From a virus (Duplodnaviria; Caudoviricetes), in IMG/VR virus record IMGVR_UViG_3300025828_000030, positions 1 to 55,951 of that record: DNA of 55,951 nucleotides. One strand, 5' to 3'. The position numbers were made by a program, and so were the translations under genes. Positions 20,028 to 37,438 of this stretch are shown here, piece by piece (the first letter of the stretch is position 1; every line of letters begins with the position of its first letter). The notes under the pieces are model-generated. The model ran no database searches, had not been told where the DNA came from, and saw only the letters and a program-made list of their open reading frames with translations.

Positions 20028-22502
20028 TTAATTTTTATTTTGCATATCTAGCATTTTAAAACGTGCTTGTTGTTCTAGTCTTGCTCTAGCAGTTTCATCA
20101 CGTAAATCTGCTATATCTTCCATAGACTCTATTCTTTCTCTGTCAACATTAATACGTCTTTGTGCTTCCATTGCTTTACGTTTTTCTTCTTGTAAAAACT
20201 GTTGTTGTTCCATGGATAACTCTTGACCTTTGAGTGCAAGTTCTTGTTTTCTTATGGCTACTAATGGATCTTCATCACTTGGATCTTCTACCTGTTGACT
20301 GTATTGAGTAATAAGCTCTGCCATAATCGGTGCAGAGAACTGTGCCAATATATCACCTGCTTGTTGCACCATCTGTTGTGCTTCAGCAGGATTAGCCTGT
20401 TGAGCTTGCTGTTGTATTTGCTGGAACTGTTGCATAACCTCAGGTGGCATTTGTTGTTCGGCCATAGTATCTGCTTTCATTTGCAAATGTTGCATTATGT
20501 GTGAATGTATTAAAGCCTGGACCTGGGCGTTCATTTGCACAGGAGGTGTTTTTAACAAAGCGATATGCGTTGCTATATGTGCATCATGGTTCTGTTGACC
20601 AAAAGCTTGAGCTTGTTGGCCTAGTAATAACTTGTTGTTTTCAAAGCCAGCTTCTAATGGCGTAGGATCTTGTGGGGGTGGTGGTGTTAATATCTTCTCA
20701 ATATTATCTACACCAATAGCTGAGTACATTCTTTTGTATGCTTCATAAGTTCCATTAGGACCGTGCACCTCTGGATTAGATTGTACTAACTGCATCATTT
20801 CTTGAGCCATGGCAATGCGTTGAGATTGACTGAATATATCGGGGTTAGAGATGGGGAATATATCTATATTATCGTCAAAATCGGATAATTTTATCGCAGC
20901 ATTGCCACCAGCTACGGCATAAGGGTACTCAGGGGGGAGGTACTCCTTAAATACTTGTGCAAGTAACTTAAACTCTTTTTTCTGTGAATTATGCAATCTT
21001 TTGTGGATCGCACTTAAAACTTTAGTAGATCTTTCTAATAAAGCTAATGTTGTACCTACAGGTGCATTTGGATTGCCTTGACCTGTGTTAATTTCAGCAA
21101 TAGATGCAAACTTTTTACCACCGTCTACTAAAATACCTAAAAGGTTTAATAAAGTGCCACTAGGTTCTTTAAATGGTAGTGGTTGGATAGATTCTCTTAA
21201 TGATCCACCAGGAGCATCAACATCTCTAAACTCACCTGGTTGAATCGGTGTATCTTCATCTCTAATTCTTATACCTCTAGTTTTAAAACCAGCAGGTAAG
21301 TTAGCAAGAGTACCAGCGTCAATAAGCTGTCTTAGTATTGAGGTAGAAGCTTTAGATAAACCACCTATCATATGAGTTAAACCAAACCCATAAAAACCTA
21401 GTCCTGGTAAAAACTTAAAGTGGACAAAGTATTCAATCTTATTCTTCATAGGATCTTGTTCTTGGAAGTTTCTACGGATAGATAGTATTTCGTTAGATCC
21501 TGAGTCAATCGTTACGATATATGGAAGTTTTACACCTGTCAGCTCACCATTCTCATCTGTATCTTCGAAGCCATCTATGTCTAAATTACAATGAACCTCG
21601 TAAAGAATAGATACCTCTCCGTCATCGTAAGATGGCTCCATACCTGATAACTTGTTGATTTCTTCTTTAGCTTCAGAATACATATCAGGTTCTTCACCTG
21701 TATCTATATCTATCTTGCGGTAAAAACCAATAGCTTGAAGTTTTCTAACTTCGTTTTCTGGCATTTTGACTACGTTAGTAATTCTTGGGCAAGTCTCTAA
21801 GTCAGTTGTATAGTAAGGCACAATTAAATCTTCAGGTGCTACAAACTTAGATACAGCTCTACCTAAGGTTTCATCGTAGTAAATTTTCTTAAATGCAGAT
21901 CCTGCAAGTGGTAAGTAAAAGAGCATCTGATCTAATTCTTCATCAAACTCTTCCATCACATGAACAATTTGATAGTTCATAAAGTCTTTGACTCTTTGTG
22001 CTTGTTCTTCTACCGCAGTATCGTATGCACCAATAACTTGTGTTTTTACAGGTCCACCGGATGGTAATAATTCTTTGTATGCTTGTGCTTGGAAAGTTGT
22101 GACTGCTTCACCTAGTAACGGATGAATGACTCCAGATGCACCTTCAAAAGGCTCAGACCTTTCATCGTCAAACTTCATACCTAGATATTTCAGACCATCG
22201 GTGTAAGTCTTTTCCCAGTCTTCACGTGATGACTTGTCTCTATCAATACCGTCTACAAGTTCGTTAGCTATTCTTCCAAGATCTGAGTCGCTTAACATTT
22301 CAGCTAAGTTTTCGTTGAACCCTGTTTCCATGGGTTCTTGCATATCAGCTTCTAATATTGCACTGCCGTCTTCTTGCAACACAAAGTCTTCCATACCAGC
22401 TTCTTCAATTGCAGCTAATGCTACTTCCATTCCTTCATCACCTAAAGGCACTTGGTTTTCTTCGTTGAGAACTGTTGGATTAATTTCTTTATCTATCGCC
22501 AT
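20028..22502 (-). CDS. Portal protein
   Basis: 824 aa directly after TerL; HPLLGEAV..FQA, RVKDFMNYQI, GSAFKKIYYD, LIDAGTLAN, Q-rich tail. Confidence 0.9.
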   Translation of the reverse strand: MAIDKEINPTVLNEENQVPLGDEGMEVALAAIEEAGMEDFVLQEDGSAILEADMQEPMETGFNENLAEMLSDSDLGRIANELVDGIDRDKSSREDWEKTYTDGLKYLGMKFDDERSEPFEGASGVIHPLLGEAVTTFQAQAYKELLPSGGPVKTQVIGAYDTAVEEQAQRVKDFMNYQIVHVMEEFDEELDQMLFYLPLAGSAFKKIYYDETLGRAVSKFVAPEDLIVPYYTTDLETCPRITNVVKMPENEVRKLQAIGFYRKIDIDTGEEPDMYSEAKEEINKLSGMEPSYDDGEVSILYEVHCNLDIDGFEDTDENGELTGVKLPYIVTIDSGSNEILSIRRNFQEQDPMKNKIEYFVHFKFLPGLGFYGFGLTHMIGGLSKASTSILRQLIDAGTLANLPAGFKTRGIRIRDEDTPIQPGEFRDVDAPGGSLRESIQPLPFKEPSGTLLNLLGILVDGGKKFASIAEINTGQGNPNAPVGTTLALLERSTKVLSAIHKRLHNSQKKEFKLLAQVFKEYLPPEYPYAVAGGNAAIKLSDFDDNIDIFPISNPDIFSQSQRIAMAQEMMQLVQSNPEVHGPNGTYEAYKRMYSAIGVDNIEKILTPPPPQDPTPLEAGFENNKLLLGQQAQAFGQQNHDAHIATHIALLKTPPVQMNAQVQALIHSHIMQHLQMKADTMAEQQMPPEVMQQFQQIQQQAQQANPAEAQQMVQQAGDILAQFSAPIMAELITQYSQQVEDPSDEDPLVAIRKQELALKGQELSMEQQQFLQEEKRKAMEAQRRINVDRERIESMEDIADLRDETARARLEQQARFKMLDMQNKN

Positions 22503-23962
22503 TAGTAATATACCCTTCTAATCGGTGCTTTTTCCTCGTCCATATAATCATCATCCAGAGAAACTAAGCCACCCTCTCTAAATCTCATGAGGGCTTGAGT
22601 CATAGTATCACATAAATCATCATTTTTACCAAAAGGAAAAGACGCACATTCCTCAATCATTTCCTCAGCAAACTTACGTTCTGGTGCATAAACCAGGTTA
22701 GATTCAAATATAGGTGCAACCGAATGCATCCTGGTTGATTTATCGTGTCCTCTAGTTGGTGAATAATTCACAACAGGTATGCCGAGCCTTCTTAGTTCAT
22801 GAGTAAGGGGTGTACCAGAGGCTTTTGCCTCAATCAGTGTCATGTCCGGTTCCCAGTATTTATATTCGTTATAGGCTATACGTTTGAGTTCAGGAAAGTC
22901 CCATCTGCCTTTTTGTGCATCGAGCAAAATAATACAGTCCGGTGAATCAGGCGTTGGTCTAAAAATACCCCATGTGGATATAGCCGAGTAGTCAGCGTTC
23001 TCTTTTTTAGAAAAAGCCGTATCGTAGCTTTGAATGATATAGCTCACCGGTGGCATAGCTTCACTATCCCAGATGTTCCACCACTCACGCTTGATAATAG
23101 AACCTTCTTCTGAAGTAGGAGTCTGCATCCACTGTGCATTCCATTTCTGCACAGGTAGCGAGGCTTTTACTTTTTCTAGCTCAGATATTTCCCAGAACTC
23201 AGGCCATAAAGCATTGTTGGTTTCAGGAAAGATAGCAGGAAACTCTACAACTTCCCACTGATCAGCGTTATCTTCTTTCTGTGCGTCAAGCAGTTTTGCT
23301 GTCAAATCAATAGATGACCAACGTGTCATCACTAGAATAATAGCTCCACCTGGTTGCAAACGCTGTCTAGGTCCAGATGTGTACCATTCCCAACAAGATT
23401 CTAACGCACTAGGGCTCAAAGCGTCTTGTTCTGAATGTGGGTCGTCTATAATCAGCAGATCCGCACCACGACCTGTAATAGCACCACCGACACCAGCAGC
23501 GAAATACTCACCGCCTTTGTTCGTTTCCCAACGACCAGCAGATTTAGAATCAGCTTGCAGTTGTACTTCGGTAAAGATACGTTTATATCTGTCGGTATCC
23601 ATCATGTTTCTGACCTTACGACCAAACCTTACAGCTAGTTCGCCTGTGTGGGTGGTCTGCATAATCTTACGATTCGGCTGTTTACCCATGATCCAGGCAG
23701 GAAAATAGGTCGAACAAAACTCAGACTTGGTGTGTCTAGGTGGCATATTGACGATTAAACGGTTAATTTTGCCGTTTGCTACGTCTTCAAGCTTCTTTGC
23801 GAATATCTTGTGATGACGGCCACAAATGAACTCTGGCCACATATAATTAATGTATTCTAAGAAACTTTCTTGACATTTTGACTGTTTTTCAAGGGTTTGG
23901 AGGCGTTCTTTGAGAACCAGAGTTTCTTTTATCTCTTGATCCGATAAGTGTGCTAGGTTCAT
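22502..23962 (-). CDS. terL: Terminase large subunit
   Basis: NMPPRHTKS Walker A-like, LLIIDDP Walker B, VMTRW, RNase H-like SYDTAF..DYSA and NDDLCDTMTQAL. Confidence 0.95.
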   Translation of the reverse strand: MNLAHLSDQEIKETLVLKERLQTLEKQSKCQESFLEYINYMWPEFICGRHHKIFAKKLEDVANGKINRLIVNMPPRHTKSEFCSTYFPAWIMGKQPNRKIMQTTHTGELAVRFGRKVRNMMDTDRYKRIFTEVQLQADSKSAGRWETNKGGEYFAAGVGGAITGRGADLLIIDDPHSEQDALSPSALESCWEWYTSGPRQRLQPGGAIILVMTRWSSIDLTAKLLDAQKEDNADQWEVVEFPAIFPETNNALWPEFWEISELEKVKASLPVQKWNAQWMQTPTSEEGSIIKREWWNIWDSEAMPPVSYIIQSYDTAFSKKENADYSAISTWGIFRPTPDSPDCIILLDAQKGRWDFPELKRIAYNEYKYWEPDMTLIEAKASGTPLTHELRRLGIPVVNYSPTRGHDKSTRMHSVAPIFESNLVYAPERKFAEEMIEECASFPFGKNDDLCDTMTQALMRFREGGLVSLDDDYMDEEKAPIRRVYY

Positions 23963-27589: not shown

Positions 27590-27778
27590 TTACATTTTGT
27601 CTACTCTTTTATAGAACTTTCTTTTGCTGCCTAATTCATAGATGAACAACCCTTTCCTGGTCAGGTAGCCGGGCATCTTCCGGATAAATTCCTGGGCTTG
27701 TGTTTCGCACTCTTTCAAAGTAGAACCCCAAACCCGAGGTTTCCCGAGATGGCAGTACCCGACATACCCCAGCCTCAC
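27590..27778 (-). CDS. Hypothetical early protein
   Basis: 62 aa with GTG start and no clear RBS. Confidence 0.45.
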   Translation of the reverse strand: MRLGYVGYCHLGKPRVWGSTLKECETQAQEFIRKMPGYLTRKGLFIYELGSKRKFYKRVDKM

Positions 27779-27865
27779 CCGGCAGATCTCCAGGGCTTGT
27801 GTGTGTAAGGCTTATGTGCTGGCTGTAGGCCAGGACCAGGACTAATCACTAGACCCGACCCGACA
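27765..27865 (+). repeat. CCAG/AGATC - TGTGT - CCCGAC module (copy 2)
   Basis: cccagcc..agatctccagg, cttgtgtgtgta, cccgacccgac. Confidence 0.6.
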
Positions 27866-27917: not shown

Positions 27918-28076
27918 TCATTCTTCCGTATAACCGTCAAACCAAACCCCTTCCTCCCGGGTGTCGTCTCTCTGGCAATGCTCCTGAGCTTCTTCTAAGG
28001 TCAACCCAGTTTTAACTGTTTCGCGAGCTGGACCTGGAAACCCGTCCTCTTTATAAAATCTAATTATTTTGTACAC
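27918..28076 (-). CDS. Small early protein (52 aa)
   Basis: AGGAGAAGTAAT-GTG start; MYKIIRFY..GLTLEEAQEHC..WFDGYTEE. Confidence 0.8.
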   Translation of the reverse strand: MYKIIRFYKEDGFPGPARETVKTGLTLEEAQEHCQRDDTREEGVWFDGYTEE

Positions 28077-28102
28077 ATTACTTCTCCTGTAATTAAAAGC
28101 TT

Positions 28103-28134: not shown

Positions 28135-28282
28135 CCTGCTCATCCAGGCCAGATCTACCCAGGCAGATCCAGATCCCCTGGTATTAGATCCTTGTGTCTG
28201 TAATATCTGTGTCTCTAGCTATGCTAGACCGAAAACCCGACAACCCGACTCCCGACATAAAAAAACCCGACACTAGGTCGGG
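28135..28282 (+). repeat. CCAG/AGATC - TGTGT - CCCGAC module (copy 3)
   Basis: ccaggccagatc..ccaggcagatccagatc; ttgtgtctg..ctgtgtct; four cccgac copies. Confidence 0.65.
28259..28282 (-). terminator. Rho-independent terminator
   Basis: CCCGAC-CTAGT-GTCGGG followed by T7 on the minus strand. Confidence 0.8.
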
Positions 28283-28304
28283 CTTCTCTCCTCTCATCTA
28301 TCTT

Positions 28305-28472
28305 TCACATAACTACCTCTCTCATAGTTTCAAAGTGTCTTGTGATATTAACACCAACTTCGTATTCACTTCCGCATGACTCACAATGCCATTCTTCTAC
28401 TTCGCCTGTAGCGATGTCTCTTTGATAACGTAATTCATCTTCATTACACTTGGGACAAACTTGCACACACAT
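28305..28472 (-). CDS. Zinc-ribbon protein (55 aa)
   Basis: Manual translation MCVQVCPKCNEDEL..WHCESCGSEYEV..; TAATG coupling. Confidence 0.75.
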   Translation of the reverse strand: MCVQVCPKCNEDELRYQRDIATGEVEEWHCESCGSEYEVGVNITRHFETMREVVM

Positions 28473-28891
28473 TACTTAGCTACCTCATCAACAATAGCCA
28501 TGATGATTTCTTTGACTCTTGCTTGTGCGTTTGGCTCTAGCAATGCTATAGCTAACTTATCGCTTACTTGCCTCTTAACATTCCAATCATCTTTGTGCCA
28601 ATTCAACATATACTTACCATCATAGCTAAAAACACTACTAACATTATAAGCACCATTCTTGCTCATAGTATTGTAATTGGCTATATCTTCGTTTACTGAC
28701 TTCTCTCGTAGATTAAGTTCTTGGCAAAGTATGTCAATTTTTCTTTTCATCTTTCGTAGCTCATCAGTCTTCTTAACTAACGCTTTGTAGTCAGCAGACT
28801 TCTTAGCTTTTTCTATTTGCTTGTCAGCTTTCTCACTAACACCCTCCATAATCTGATTGACTATGGCTTCTTGTTCAAATTTTCTAATCAT
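28472..28891 (-). CDS. Coiled-coil early protein
   Basis: AGGAGAAGTAAT RBS; 139 aa. Confidence 0.75.
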   Translation of the reverse strand: MIRKFEQEAIVNQIMEGVSEKADKQIEKAKKSADYKALVKKTDELRKMKRKIDILCQELNLREKSVNEDIANYNTMSKNGAYNVSSVFSYDGKYMLNWHKDDWNVKRQVSDKLAIALLEPNAQARVKEIIMAIVDEVAK

Positions 28892-28924
28892 ATTACTTCT
28901 CCTATAAAGTTAATTTGAGTCTTT

Positions 28925-28982: not shown

Positions 28983-29120
28983 TCCAGCAGCCAGAACCCA
29001 GCCGGAAGATCCCAGCCAGGTATGTGTTATCCGGTGTGGATCTGTGTTATATTGTGTGTATAGTCTTTCCCGACCCGACCCGACCCGATTAGCCCGACAA
29101 CCCGACAGATAGCCCGACTG
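28983..29120 (+). repeat. CCAG/GATC - TGTGT - CCCGAC module (copy 4)
   Basis: ccagcagccag..cccagccagg; four tgtg clusters; tandem CCGAC x3 + CCGAT, then three further cccgac. Confidence 0.7.
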
Positions 29121-29252
29121 TAGCCTGTTTTTGTTTAGCTTTTTTATGGAGAGAGTGGACGAGAGAGGGGACAGATGCGATTAATCCCCAAAATCCCTCC
29201 ATATAAATCCATTCTATTATATAAATAAGATACATTTTGTTTACTATAACTA

Positions 29253-29280
29253 TTGACATTATGGATACAAATAGTATCAT
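29253..29280 (+). promoter_or_regulatory. Sigma70-like early promoter
   Basis: TTGACA-N16-TATCAT; TGGATACAAAT in the spacer. Confidence 0.65.
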
Positions 29281-29404: not shown

Positions 29405-29439
29405 ACTTTATTAACCCTTAAACTTATAGGAGAGTAAAT

Positions 29440-29874
29440 ATGGGAACGAGAAGTAATATCGCTTACGAGCAACCAAACGGAAACGTAATAGTGACTTATT
29501 GTCATTGGGACGGCTATCCAACCTACAATGGTCAAGTATTAAACGACCATTATAACAACCCCAAGAAAGCAGAAGAGATAGCCAATCAAGGTTATATCAG
29601 TTCGCTTAAACCAACAGTAAAAGAGTCAATAGAGGATAGGGCTAATCATGATGAACCTATGTTGTATAACTCTTTGAACGCTTATCTTATGGATATGAAT
29701 TGGGACATAGAATACGCTTACATCTATTCACACAATCAATGGTATTGTAATGACCATAATCTTATGAATGTCGACCCTGATACCTTTGAAATTGATAAGA
29801 GCAACACACTCAAAGCATCACACTTTGAACCTTTATGGTCTGTGCTTGTGAGACACCAAAAGGAGTCAGCATAA
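29440..29874 (+). CDS. Conserved phage early protein (YCHWDGYP family)
   Basis: MGTRSNI..YCHWDGYP..IEYAYIY; AGGAG RBS. Confidence 0.8.
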   Translation: MGTRSNIAYEQPNGNVIVTYCHWDGYPTYNGQVLNDHYNNPKKAEEIANQGYISSLKPTVKESIEDRANHDEPMLYNSLNAYLMDMNWDIEYAYIYSHNQWYCNDHNLMNVDPDTFEIDKSNTLKASHFEPLWSVLVRHQKESA

Positions 29875-30255
29875 ATGGATAACCATAAACTTACATTTAG
29901 ATCTAATAAATCCCTAGTCAAATTGGCTAGGGAGACTCTCACTAACAGTAATTTTAAAATTGCTTATCGTGATAAATACACCACAGATAAATGCTTTTAC
30001 CTTGTCAAAGATGACGGCATATATCTTATGGAAGCATACGACACAACCAAGACACCTACAGAAAATGGAACTGTAGTCTATGCAAGTGGCTACAACCCCA
30101 AGTATAACGACAACGTATGGGAAGACTCATATCAAGTCAGTTCTGATGACTTTGCTGATAATATGTATTTTACTGATGAGCAGTTAGAACGCATTGCTAG
30201 TGGTGGAGATATAGAGATAACCATAACCCCTGATACATACGAGGTGAGAGCATGA
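29875..30255 (+). CDS. DUF3085-like protein
   Basis: LVKDDGIYLM..VVYASGYNP..DDFAD pattern. Confidence 0.65.
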   Translation: MDNHKLTFRSNKSLVKLARETLTNSNFKIAYRDKYTTDKCFYLVKDDGIYLMEAYDTTKTPTENGTVVYASGYNPKYNDNVWEDSYQVSSDDFADNMYFTDEQLERIASGGDIEITITPDTYEVRA

Positions 30256-30350
30256 GCAATATTGATAGAACCAAGATACCAAAACATTTACGCCACTTAT
30301 CCGAGTGGAGACTAAGAGCATTATTTTATTTATTTAGAGGGAGAGTTTAA
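30252..30350 (+). CDS. Micro protein (32 aa)
   Basis: MSNIDRTKIPKHLRHLSEWRLRALFYLFRGRV; GAGGTG RBS and ATGA overlap. Confidence 0.55.
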   Translation: MSNIDRTKIPKHLRHLSEWRLRALFYLFRGRV

Positions 30351-30352
30351 CC

Positions 30353-30688
30353 ATGTCAACATATTACCGACCAACAACACCGATACCATTACGTGCAATC
30401 AAAATTAACAAGAATTTAAAAGAGCTTGGTTTTGAAGTCATAGAAGATGAGAACGGCACTTATTTTCATCTTGAGGGCAACTATATACATTATGCAGTTG
30501 ATAACCGTGAAAACGTCATTGATGTATTTAGATATGGTGGCAACAATGCTTCCAAAGTATTAGAACCTCTTGAGCATGAGTTTGAAGTTAATTTTATCTC
30601 CGAGTATGACGAGGAATATAACGACTATGCTGATGAAGATACAGGAGTCATTCGTATTCATATAGGAGATTTAGTCAATGACAGTTGA
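30353..30688 (+). CDS. Hypothetical early protein
   Basis: 111 aa; GGGAG RBS. Confidence 0.7.
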   Translation: MSTYYRPTTPIPLRAIKINKNLKELGFEVIEDENGTYFHLEGNYIHYAVDNRENVIDVFRYGGNNASKVLEPLEHEFEVNFISEYDEEYNDYADEDTGVIRIHIGDLVNDS

Positions 30689-30752
30689 TACCATGTTCAT
30701 AATAACCATTGTATGCTACGTCATTGCATACATAGTCTCACAACCTGAATGA
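30678..30752 (+). CDS. Micro membrane peptide (24 aa)
   Basis: MTVDTMFIITIVCYVIAYIVSQPE; AGGAG RBS; ATGA coupling to the next gene. Confidence 0.6.
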   Translation: MTVDTMFIITIVCYVIAYIVSQPE

Positions 30753-30946
30753 GAAGATTTAACATTAAGATAATCTCATTTGACCCCGAGAAGTATGACT
30801 TGCAACGATACCAAAATATCGAGCAAGTCGGCTTCAAGGTAGGCTACTTAGTCTATGAAAATCAAAAACACACTCACACAGCTTGGTTTAAAAACCATAG
30901 ACAGCTTTTTAAACATTTAGATAAGTTCTTGAACAATCCAAACTAA
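30749..30946 (+). CDS. Hypothetical protein
   Basis: 65 aa, coupled to the upstream peptide. Confidence 0.6.
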   Translation: MRRFNIKIISFDPEKYDLQRYQNIEQVGFKVGYLVYENQKHTHTAWFKNHRQLFKHLDKFLNNPN

Positions 30947-30957
30947 TTTGCTATATT
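30929..30957 (+). promoter_or_regulatory. Sigma70-like promoter for the putative sRNA
   Basis: TTGAAC-N17-TATATT with extended TG. Confidence 0.55.
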
Positions 30958-30963
30958 CGGGCT

Positions 30964-31028
30964 AAGGCATAGTCTGATTTAGGTATTACTTCTCAATCCC
31001 TCTCCACCCAATCTTGTTATGCCTTTTT
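30964..31028 (+). ncRNA. Candidate anti-RBS small RNA
   Basis: Stem AAGGCATAG/TTATGCCTT with U-tract; pyrimidine loop ATTACTTCTCAATCCCTCTCC complementary to several phage RBS regions. Confidence 0.55.
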
Positions 31029-31169
31029 ATCTTTCTTACCCTCAGATACAACCTCATAGTGATTAACCTTGCCTTCTTTAATGGCCTTAGCAAAGAGTTT
31101 TTCTAGTTCTGGGTAAGTCTTGGCAATTAATTCTTCATCTGTGTATAAGACAGCTTTAATCCTGTTCAT
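31017..31169 (-). CDS. Small protein (50 aa)
   Basis: Manual translation MNRIKAVLYTDEELIAKTYPELEKLFAKAIKEGKVNHYEVVSEGKKDKKA; overlaps the end of terS. Confidence 0.55.
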   Translation of the reverse strand: MNRIKAVLYTDEELIAKTYPELEKLFAKAIKEGKVNHYEVVSEGKKDKKA

Positions 31170-31785
31170 CTTTCTCAGTCCAACCTTCTTCCCATGCTTC
31201 TTCTTCCTCTAAATCAGTCTCTTGGTCTATTGCTTCTTGTTCTTTCTCCTGCTGATCTACCAGGGCTGGATCCGGCTCCGGTTCAGTCTTATCTTCCAGG
31301 ACCACGTTGCCCATGAGCTGAGATAACCTGGCTTCGACTTCCTCCCGACTCATTTGATCTACCTTACCGAACATTACCTCTTTACGATCTACAATAAGAC
31401 CCCCGACCTTTAACAAAGAGTTTTGAGCTGAGATAGCTGCATTAAATGATCCAGCCTCCATAGCCTTATCACGTATATCATAGAGATCCTGGACAGCCCT
31501 GTCATAGTTTAGCTCATACTTCTTCTTAGCCTCATTCATCAAATAGTTATACTCCTTACGAATCAAGGGCTTGTTCATGAGTTTGTTTGCTGCTTGTCTT
31601 GGGGAAGTGTATCCAGCTTTGTAGGCACACTCTACTAAAGATAGCCTGGGATTATTGACTGCTATCCAAATAAAGTTTCGTTGTCGTCTGTTGAGGGAGT
31701 TATCGAGGTTGCAATATTCAATGGGAGCTTCTTCTTCCGCAGATATGATAGGTTCATACTCTAGTTTATTTTTTCTATTTCCCAT
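31156..31785 (-). CDS. terS: Terminase small subunit
   Basis: LNRRQRNF..ECAYKAGY..AANKLM HTH; AGSFNAAISA..GGLIVDRKEV; acidic tail. Confidence 0.75.
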   Translation of the reverse strand: MGNRKNKLEYEPIISAEEEAPIEYCNLDNSLNRRQRNFIWIAVNNPRLSLVECAYKAGYTSPRQAANKLMNKPLIRKEYNYLMNEAKKKYELNYDRAVQDLYDIRDKAMEAGSFNAAISAQNSLLKVGGLIVDRKEVMFGKVDQMSREEVEARLSQLMGNVVLEDKTEPEPDPALVDQQEKEQEAIDQETDLEEEEAWEEGWTEKDEQD

Positions 31786-31929
31786 GTATGTTTCGCATAT
31801 TAGAGTTTGGCGTAAGCTTAATAATACTTACCCCCACTTTACCCTAAAGTGTATTGAGAGGATACTTGAGAAGTATAGATCTAGTCAAGTATTTTATAAA
31901 TTATTTAGTAAGTTTTCTTCACTCTCTAA

Positions 31930-33859: not shown

Positions 33860-33964
33860 TATTTTACCTCTCAATGTTTCTTTTTGTGTAATTAATTGTT
33901 ACTCATTGTAGACATTATACATAAAATCAATTAAGATACAAACATACATATTAAGGAGAAGTAT

Positions 33965-34171
33965 ATGGCTAAATTAGAAAAAGATATATCTAATAATGTG
34001 TCTGATGTTATAGATGAAATTATTAGTATTACCAACCCATCTAAGGAAGACTTAGAGAAACAAATAGAGCAAGATAAGATCAACTATCTTGTATGGCAAT
34101 GTGGTGTTGCTATCAAAGAACTACAAGAAGCAGTTGATGAATTAGCTAAATCAAACAAGGAGGCATCATGA
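33965..34171 (+). CDS. Hypothetical coiled-coil protein
   Basis: AAGGAGAAGTA RBS. Confidence 0.7.
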   Translation: MAKLEKDISNNVSDVIDEIISITNPSKEDLEKQIEQDKINYLVWQCGVAIKELQEAVDELAKSNKEAS

Positions 34172-36991: not shown

Positions 36992-37090
36992 TTCTCAATC
37001 TCCTTTAAATTAAAATTAACTTGCATATTATATACTAGATAGATACAATATGTAAAACTTATTTTTACAATATGTTGACAAGGAGAAGTA

Positions 37091-37438
37091 ATGGACAATA
37101 TAGATAAAGAAACCCACACCTGGCAGGCTAATTATTATTTTAGGACAAAGACATTAGCAACAAGAAAACTTAAGGAATTTGAAACCATGGGAATAAAACC
37201 AAATCATACTGATAGAAAGGTTAAGAAGTATACCCTTAGAGATTACATTGAGTTCTTAGGACAGAAGGAAGCTGCAAAACAGTTTGGATGTTCTGAGGCT
37301 TCTTGCAAGTCTTGGAGGTATGGGTATCGACAACCGACAATAAACCAAGCAAAGCAAATCATACGAGCAACTGATGGTAGATTAGATTATGAGTCTATTT
37401 ATGGACCTATAGCTGAAATACTAGAAACAGAAGCTTAA
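37091..37438 (+). CDS. Cro-like HTH regulator
   Basis: GQKEAAKQFGCSEASCKSWRYGYRQP..IIRATDG. Confidence 0.75.
   Translation: MDNIDKETHTWQANYYFRTKTLATRKLKEFETMGIKPNHTDRKVKKYTLRDYIEFLGQKEAAKQFGCSEASCKSWRYGYRQPTINQAKQIIRATDGRLDYESIYGPIAEILETEA

Follow-up and report, generated by a model that had tools for sequence, protein, structure and literature searches.

We have identified an element at positions 30929-31028 of a phage genome in which a promoter, a hairpin and an exposed loop are conserved among relatives, and whose loop is complementary, in a lineage-specific manner, to the start regions of two genes. The chances appear about even that it is an sRNA gene of the DapZ-like 3'-end type, the product of which would occlude the starts of genes 29440 and 28891 and possibly those of other family members. 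It would then be a new family of a known kind of regulator.

The window, by which we mean the whole stretch of DNA analysed, is a complete phage genome of 55,951 bp in a single contig with ~37% G+C. Judged by the large terminase (TerL), its nearest cultured relatives are the Pelagibacter phages HTVC027P (57% identity) and HTVC023P (56%). No DNA-level similarity to cultured phages, near or distant, was found, and the 161-nt element gave only chance matches to them. The element lies between converging gene blocks, namely the plus-strand operon 29440-30946 and the minus-strand 50-aa ORF and terS (Table 1). The terS product matches Terminase_2 at 24.6 bits, under the cut-off of 26.1, and an ORF homologous to the 65-aa ORF that ends the plus-strand operon is present in relatives.

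Table 1. Positions of the promoter, hairpin, neighbouring genes, candidate targets and motif clusters in the window, with the ranks of start regions among the 86 compared
Feature	Position	Strand	Description	RNAduplex rank	Co-folding rank
Small-RNA promoter	30929-30957	+	TTGAAC-N17-TATATT, 9 of 12 consensus matches		
-35 hexamer TTGAAC	30929-30934	+	Overlaps last codons of ORF 30749-30946		
TG before -10 hexamer	30949-30950	+	-10 hexamer TATATT at 30952-30957		
Predicted small RNA, ~65 nt	30964-31028	+	Single long hairpin ending in U5 (folding)		
Closing stem	30964-30972 with 31017-31025	+	Folding		
Inner pairs	30976-79 with 31010-13; 30982-84 with 31006-08	+	Folding		
CU-rich loop, proposed seed	30984-31005	+	UAUUACUUCUC AAUCC CUCUCC		
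Operon of four genes	29440-30946	+	Small RNA at 3' end		
65-aa ORF, last gene of operon 29440-30946	30749-30946	+	Final codons contain -35 hexamer		
50-aa ORF, converging	31169..31017	-	Stop inside hairpin 3' arm		
terS, small terminase subunit	31785..31156	-	phrog_51, 1.6e-7		
Large terminase	22502-23962	-	TerL, 60% identical to phage 023Pt_psg01		
Best candidate target, gene 29440-29874	29429-29458	+	SD GGAGAG at 29429-34 and codons 1-6 at 29442-58	1	5
Second candidate target, start region of divergent gene 28891..28472 (139 aa)	28882-28901	-	Duplex pairing	9	25
Possible weaker target, start of gene 33965-34171	33956-33963	+	GGAGAAGTA, 8-nt string match	4	7
Possible weaker target, start of Cro-like gene 37091-37438	37083-37092	+	GGAGAAGTAAT motif, 10-nt string match	21	9
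Possible weaker target, start of gene 28076..27918	28077-28086	-	GGAGAAGTAAT motif, 10-nt string match	26	14
Start regions 33859/33874				11/20	21/19
Start region 36991				22	29
CCCGAC clusters	29069-29118, 28236-28282, 27758-27864	+	Motif count		

Promoter and hairpin at the 3' end of an operon

The promoter string reported in the preliminary description is present at the positions given there, as is the ~65-nt hairpin that begins at 30964 and ends in a U-tract. The -10 hexamer lies after the stop codon of ORF 30749-30946 and outside any ORF. Promoter-like sites as such occur in the window at chance level (42 observed, 41.8 expected). In order to extend the comparison to relatives, the sequence beside terS was searched with the pattern TTG[ACT][AT][ACT]-N17-TA[TC]A[AT]T, which matched in 76 of 81 sources; the hexamers and the 17-nt spacing are constant, and the sequence of the spacer is variable. 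The first paired base of the hairpin falls 6 nt past the -10 hexamer in 36 of 40 distinct RNAs, and 6-7 nt past it overall.

The hairpin spans 30964-31025, with an unpaired stretch at 30985-31005 and U5 at 31024-31028. In the window its fold z-score is -1.29 against dinucleotide shuffles and -2.9 against mononucleotide shuffles. Transcription of the element and any processing of the transcript are predictions from this layout. Assembled RNA-library contigs of relatives cover 30853-31026, one of them starting at ~30949; these contigs do not show strand or ends and may be DNA. Six RNA-library runs share small parts of the stretch, and in the four examined all were contigs.

Rfam yielded no match at the gathering score across the whole window, and at E values up to 10 the only match within 30850-31150 was fstAT (E = 4.9, 31083-31150), outside the element. 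ARAGORN found no tRNA. With regard to a type I toxin-antitoxin system, no peptide of the kind that accompanies the hairpin in one group of relatives (group 3, below) turned up when all six frames of the window were searched by pattern.

Variation of the element among relatives

A protein search with terS returned 80 viral contigs (75-100% identity), and BLAST with 30900-31060 located the element downstream of terS in 52 of them. A third form occupies the equivalent position in 26 of the remaining 28; of the last two, one contig is cut inside the element and the other lacks sequence at that position. Another 13 contigs, obtained in a further scan, carry new group-1 variants of like build, and the element is present on many marine viral contigs.

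Group 1, which contains the window, has the stem AAGGCAUA/UAUGCCUU, or GAGGCAUA/UAUGCCUC in two types, and a loop of the form ..AUUACUUCUC..CUCUCC... Group 2 pairs GGCGUGUC with GACACGCC or GAUACGCC and has an extra inner hairpin; one of its types (L044) has a wholly different 15-bp stem, and the exposed stretch reads CAUACUU(A)CUCCUC. Group 3 has the promoter TTGCTA-N17-TACAAT, the stem GUGGUACUU/GAGUGCCAC (GAAGCAGUA/UACUGCUUC in L071 and L072) and the loop AUCUUCUACUCUCCUAAAAG. A U-rich tail follows the hairpin in groups 1 and 2 and is missing from group 3.

Hairpin length ranges from 61 to 78 nt across relatives. The 40 distinct RNAs contain 12 different 8-bp closing-arm pairs, every one of which pairs at 8 of 8 positions, against an average of 4.06 of 8 when the arms are swapped across types. 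Fold z-scores lie between -2.9 and -5.2 in all 23 sequences tested. Within group 1 the stem is nearly invariant: 8 of 16 pairs never vary, one pair has changed on both sides, and the covariation score is reached by 47 of 500 shuffles. The covariation of the stem is therefore between groups, and depends on groups 1-3 being positional homologues. Structures were taken from per-sequence folds; RNAalifold gave only 5 pairs, since MAFFT, when aligning the groups together, puts the group-2 5' arm in the wrong place.

The CU-rich stretch remains single-stranded in all folds. Compared column by column, 21 distinct group-1 sequences hardly differ in UUACUUCUC and CUCUCC, and the bases between these motifs are variable; the 5' arm GGCAUAGUCUGAUUU is also near-invariant, and the 3' inner arm varies. 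In the predicted folds the proposed seed is conserved and single-stranded, as in a DapZ-type sRNA. The hairpin is retained in loci without the 50-aa ORF, in loci whose upstream ORF is different (L012, L018) and in loci where terS ends within the loop, so that what is conserved is not the overlap with terS. Since promoter, hairpin and exposed loop are kept together in relatives, a real RNA gene is likely, and the discrete sRNA gene of the preliminary description is well supported by comparison.

A model built on group 1 (R1) finds a single copy of the element in the genome. It has no match at the terS loci of HTVC027P and HTVC023P, and groups 2 and 3 are also not reached by it. A 16-mer searched against prokaryote genomes gave 118 matches in unrelated taxa; 80 of those loci were scanned with R1 and gave one weak match (E = 0.0023, 26 bits), and therefore no host or prophage copy was found.

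In group 3 a conserved hydrophobic ORF of 21-24 aa, which ends in [DG]RP[KN] and has no SD in front, lies between hairpin and terS, on the strand of the promoter and hairpin (loci include L029, L041, L049, L050, L056, L058, L071 and L073). The peptide (e.g. MSFLFYLALFLYILVFILDRPNQN) occurs in five variants at 20 of the 23 loci with a called ORF, another frame having been picked at the other three. It lies downstream on the strand of the hairpin and is not antisense to it. This may be an RNA with two functions, or the hairpin may serve as the structured leader of a small membrane protein.

Start regions complementary to the loop

The loop was originally described as antisense to a family of operon-first start regions, and our comparison supports this. 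Its opposite strand resembles the start regions of the genome, with AGGAG, an A-rich spacer and ATG. The best candidate target, absent from the original list, is the start of gene 29440-29874 (144 aa, phrog_1987), which opens the plus-strand operon with the RNA at its 3' end. An 11-nt match at 29448-29458 (codons 3-6) is accompanied by a match to the SD at 29429-29434, and the loop and this start region form inverted repeat I4 (17 nt, 88%). Among 22,362 windows on both strands, 29416-29465 is the best non-self partner of the loop by RNAduplex, at -30.0 kcal/mol; the runners-up reach -28.6 and -28.2, and the mean of all windows is -9.0 (sd 3.9). The predicted pairing consists of 11 bp in codons 3-6, 4 bp in codon 2 and 5-6 bp at the SD, with the AUG looped out. 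In addition to its ranks among 86 (Table 1), this start region is first in a set of 47.

The second candidate is the start region of the divergent gene 28891, for which pairing of 19 mRNA bases (-9 to +10) with RNA positions 30974-30994 is predicted, in two blocks (12 and 7) and with a bulge of 3 nt. This pairing also uses the conserved 5' inner arm. The start regions of 28891 and 29440 are 80% identical over 25 nt (inverted repeat I2). For the proteins of both genes, Pfam and PHROGs give nothing or 'unknown function', and the protein atlas gives unnamed viral clusters for 29440 and no match for 28891.

Several further features of this region were observed. The two arms of I2 lie at 28889-28913 and 29418-29442, and the coding sequence of gene 29440 contains, at 29448-29459, an exact copy of the 12-mer 28890-28901 (I9). 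Relatives whose proteins are only 40-100% identical keep codons 1-6 of this gene nearly invariant in nucleotides. A GA-rich block, GGAGAGAG-N-GAGAGGGG-ACAGATGCGATTAA (29147-29183, plus strand), is kept in the divergent intergenic region of relatives, lies upstream of a plus-strand promoter at 29253 and is complementary to CU-rich sequence. In some loci it forms the best duplex with the RNA (e.g. -48.5 kcal/mol with the full RNA in L031); on the minus strand it would place a CU-rich stretch in the leader of gene 28891.

The complementarity was followed through the lineages of the element. When all 50-nt windows of each locus were compared, the 29440 homologue came first in 5 of 23 RNA types and among the top five in 14; in five (L023, L063, L074, L066 and L079, mostly group 2) it was 31st or lower among the clustered top windows, or unranked. 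Among SD-bearing start regions it came first in 12 of the 23 types and among the top three in 15. With ties counted, the longest perfect match in 19 of 23 lineages falls on the 29440 homologue or the gene divergent from it; in 12 it is strictly the longest. The register of pairing differs between groups, being GAGAAGUAAUA plus GGAGAG (11+6 nt) in group 1a, ACUUUUAGGAGAGUA (15 nt, matching both divergent genes) in group 3 and, in part of group 2, AGGAGAAGUAU (11 nt, to the 28891 homologue). Matches within a lineage are longer than matches across lineages (10.16 versus 8.63 nt, 0 of 2000 permutations, and in a second comparison 9.4 versus 8.58 nt, 1 of 2000, with relatedness ignored in both). 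Clear single-position compensations between loop and target are few (L004; GUAU in group 2 versus GUAAU in group 1). Across the loci compared, complementarity that tracks lineage concerns the two genes 29440 and 28891.

The wider regulon of six targets that had been proposed is not supported. All six complementary strings are letter-perfect, as is a further copy at 31866-31875, with 33864-33875 pairing only if G-U is allowed. The sites do not stand out among 86 start regions, whether ranked by RNAduplex or by co-folding of the full RNA with 80-nt start regions (Table 1), and the two sets of ranks differ; target prediction from the single genome is therefore not robust, and the ranking across lineages is steadier. 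Judged from the window by itself, none of promoter, fold and match number is significant. The number of matches is not above chance: six matches of at least 10 nt occur genome-wide against a mean of 2.3 (sd 1.9), six being reached by 64 of 1000 shuffled loops, and ordinary start-region 32-mers share at least 10 nt with up to 10 other sites. The count is at chance because the opposite strand of the loop reads like the start regions of this genome, and this likeness means that the loop may itself be a relic of duplication or inversion.

The start regions of 28076, 28891, 33965 and 37091 have GGAGAAGTA in common, and that of 29440 has GGAGAGTAA. On the gene map, each of these five genes appears to head a transcription unit. 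The shared motif may come from duplicated promoter-leader modules, for which the CCCGAC arrays of this genome offer a comparison. CCCGAC occurs in 16 copies against 3.3 expected (0 of 100 shuffles), mostly in three plus-strand clusters, two of which lie ~160-230 nt upstream, in the minus-strand sense, of the GGAGAAGTAAT-start genes 28891 and 28076. The arrays are also present in relatives and may be an operator or iteron array. A minus-strand hairpin with a U-run at 28247-28296, GCCCGAC...GTCGGG, is built from the same units and is likely a terminator between gene 28472..28305 and gene 28076. Within the small-RNA locus, TCGGGCTA is the reverse complement of the array units (inverted repeat I6).

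Alternative readings and known regulators

The hairpin might be a transcription terminator only, for the plus-strand operon or for both converging units, with the start-like loop an inert relic (e.g. the joint of an inversion or duplication between similar start regions) and the promoter kept for other reasons. We consider this unlikely, although a G+C-rich stem (AAGGCAUAG/UUAUGCCUU) stands directly before U5, as in an intrinsic terminator, and exactly between the converging genes. A terminator replaced in situ would give an equal between-group pattern of stems, covariation within groups is weak, the number of loop matches is at chance, and start-region-like copies flank the plus-strand operon as inverted repeats (I2, I4, I9). 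However, the interior between the closing arms is 44 nt long, whereas the clear terminators elsewhere in the genome have 5-nt loops, and a terminator scan admitting loops of 3-8 nt made no call here. A terminator would also leave unexplained why a -10 hexamer that lies outside ORFs holds its distance from both the -35 hexamer and the stem, why the loop motifs are near-invariant while the neighbours vary, and why the loop tracks the start regions of its own lineage. In group 3 the hairpin lacks a U-run and leads into the conserved small ORF, so it is not a terminator there.

Action in cis, as an antisense RNA to the 3' end of the converging terS-operon mRNA (like lambda OOP on cII) or through transcription interference, with no effect on distant starts, strikes us as rather improbable. 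Complementarity to the minus-strand transcript is perfect by construction, the minus-strand ORF stops within the 3' arm (group 1) or the loop (group 2), and read-through is likely on the minus strand, where no U-run follows the hairpin. The overlapped gene nevertheless varies, being the 50-aa ORF or the tail of terS, and in group 3 the peptide ORF of the plus strand separates hairpin and terS. The lineage-specific match to the starts of 29440 and 28891 would be left unexplained.

It is very unlikely that the minus strand is the functional one, the start-like loop downstream of terS serving as a mini-ORF, a re-initiation site, or a decoy that titrates a start-binding repressor or the RNA itself. 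That strand does carry an SD and a start codon (GGAGAGGGA-TTG in the window, GGAG(T)AAGT-ATG in group 2), and the group-2 ATG occurs in all distinct sequences examined, 2-12 nt past the terS stop. Read by eye from the sequences, however, the mini-ORFs vary in frame and in length (5 to ~21 codons), with indels of 1, 2 and 4 nt, and group 3 members have no start codon there; neither the plus-strand promoter nor its fixed distance from the stem would be accounted for.

A DNA-level site, operator or packaging site, in place of an RNA is scarcely credible: the element adjoins terS, TCGGGCTA between the -10 hexamer and the stem mirrors the array units at 29069-29118, and a copy of TTGAGAAGTA lies in the terS promoter spacer, but the between-group compensatory changes of the stem point to a folded single strand and the loop motif tracks mRNA start regions. 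That copy (31866-31875), put forward earlier as a possible operator, sits in a variable spacer and is retained by only 8 of the 47 distinct upstream sequences, and therefore counts neither as operator nor as target. In the same 47 sequences, a 44-nt block on the minus strand (31822-31865, 37-80 nt upstream of terS) is nearly invariant. It follows TTGACT and the variable 17-nt spacer, contains a 7-bp hairpin (CACTTTA GGG TAAAGTG) and may be a late promoter or leader, or a packaging-related signal.

A trans-acting sRNA thus remains our preferred reading, and it has counterparts among known regulators. DapZ of Salmonella has a conserved promoter just upstream of the dapB stop codon (PMC9438474). 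DapZ, MicX and MicL resemble the present element, as predicted, in having a promoter at the end of the upstream coding sequence, a terminator in common with the parental mRNA and a short base-pairing RNA as product. Its -35 hexamer lies in the last codons of ORF 30749-30946 and its -10 hexamer after the stop, an arrangement of the DapZ type. The element differs from these RNAs in being phage-encoded, in being a single hairpin whose loop is the proposed seed, and in having as its proposed main target the first gene of its own parental operon; it has no sequence relation to them (no Rfam match).

The proposed regulatory logic resembles that of P1 c4. In the immI operon of P1 and P7, C4, Icd and Ant are related in that c4 controls ant expression (PMC8201110). 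Like the present element with its proposed main target, c4 is a phage RNA that shares both strand and operon with the gene it acts on. The loops of c4 reportedly pair with the ribosome-binding region of icd, in work attributed to Citron and Schuster in 1990, and c4 is cut out of the operon transcript by RNase P. In contrast to c4, which lies upstream of its targets, the element lies ~1.5 kb downstream of the 29440 start; it has a promoter to itself, and a divergent gene is matched as well.

P22 sar and lambda OOP are short phage RNAs, each with a promoter and a terminator hairpin, encoded in intergenic or gene-end positions. Both repress a phage mRNA at the level of translation or stability, and act on the opposite-strand transcript of their own locus. 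Here, in contrast, the conserved complementarity is to starts 1.5-2.1 kb away and the locally overlapped gene varies. T4 RegA is a protein, a single phage factor that recognises the start regions of several early mRNAs. The six-target model followed a like logic; in the present case two start regions are supported comparatively.

For the sRNA that we favour, the following mechanism can be hypothesized. A sigma-70-like promoter that straddles the stop codon of the last plus-strand gene would direct synthesis of a ~65-nt RNA that starts at ~30964 and ends at the U-run 31024-31028. The closing stem would double as the intrinsic terminator of the upstream operon, and the large loop would expose UAUUACUUCUC...CUCUCC. 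Loop and 5' inner arm (UCUGAUU) would then pair in vivo with the initiation regions of two divergent operon-first genes, at 29440 via the SD and codons 1-6 and at 28891 via -9 to +10. The direction of the effect would be repressive: pairing would occlude the ribosome-binding site, so that translation would fall as the RNA accumulates. The other GGAGAAGTAAT start regions (28076, 37091, 33965) would be possible weaker targets. The 29440 operon would be placed under a negative feedback loop, because the RNA would be made from or at that operon's own 3' end.

A broader view, which we hold to be speculative and on balance unlikely, is that a family of riboregulators in abundant, pelagiphage-related ocean podoviruses co-evolves with the start region that the operon-first genes have in common. 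It would be an RNA analogue of T4 RegA and, on accumulating, would stop early translation. Its natural sponge would be the late terS transcript that converges on it, and in one lineage the RNA would also be the mRNA of the 21-24 aa membrane peptide. Full-text searches on pelagiphage antisense RNA and on phage-encoded anti-Shine-Dalgarno sRNAs yielded no RNA regulator for this phage group, and Rfam is without a family for the element. If the RNA is real, it would be a compact case of a phage RNA that controls translation of the phage's own early operons, for which the natural variants across lineages offer ready combinations of seed and target.
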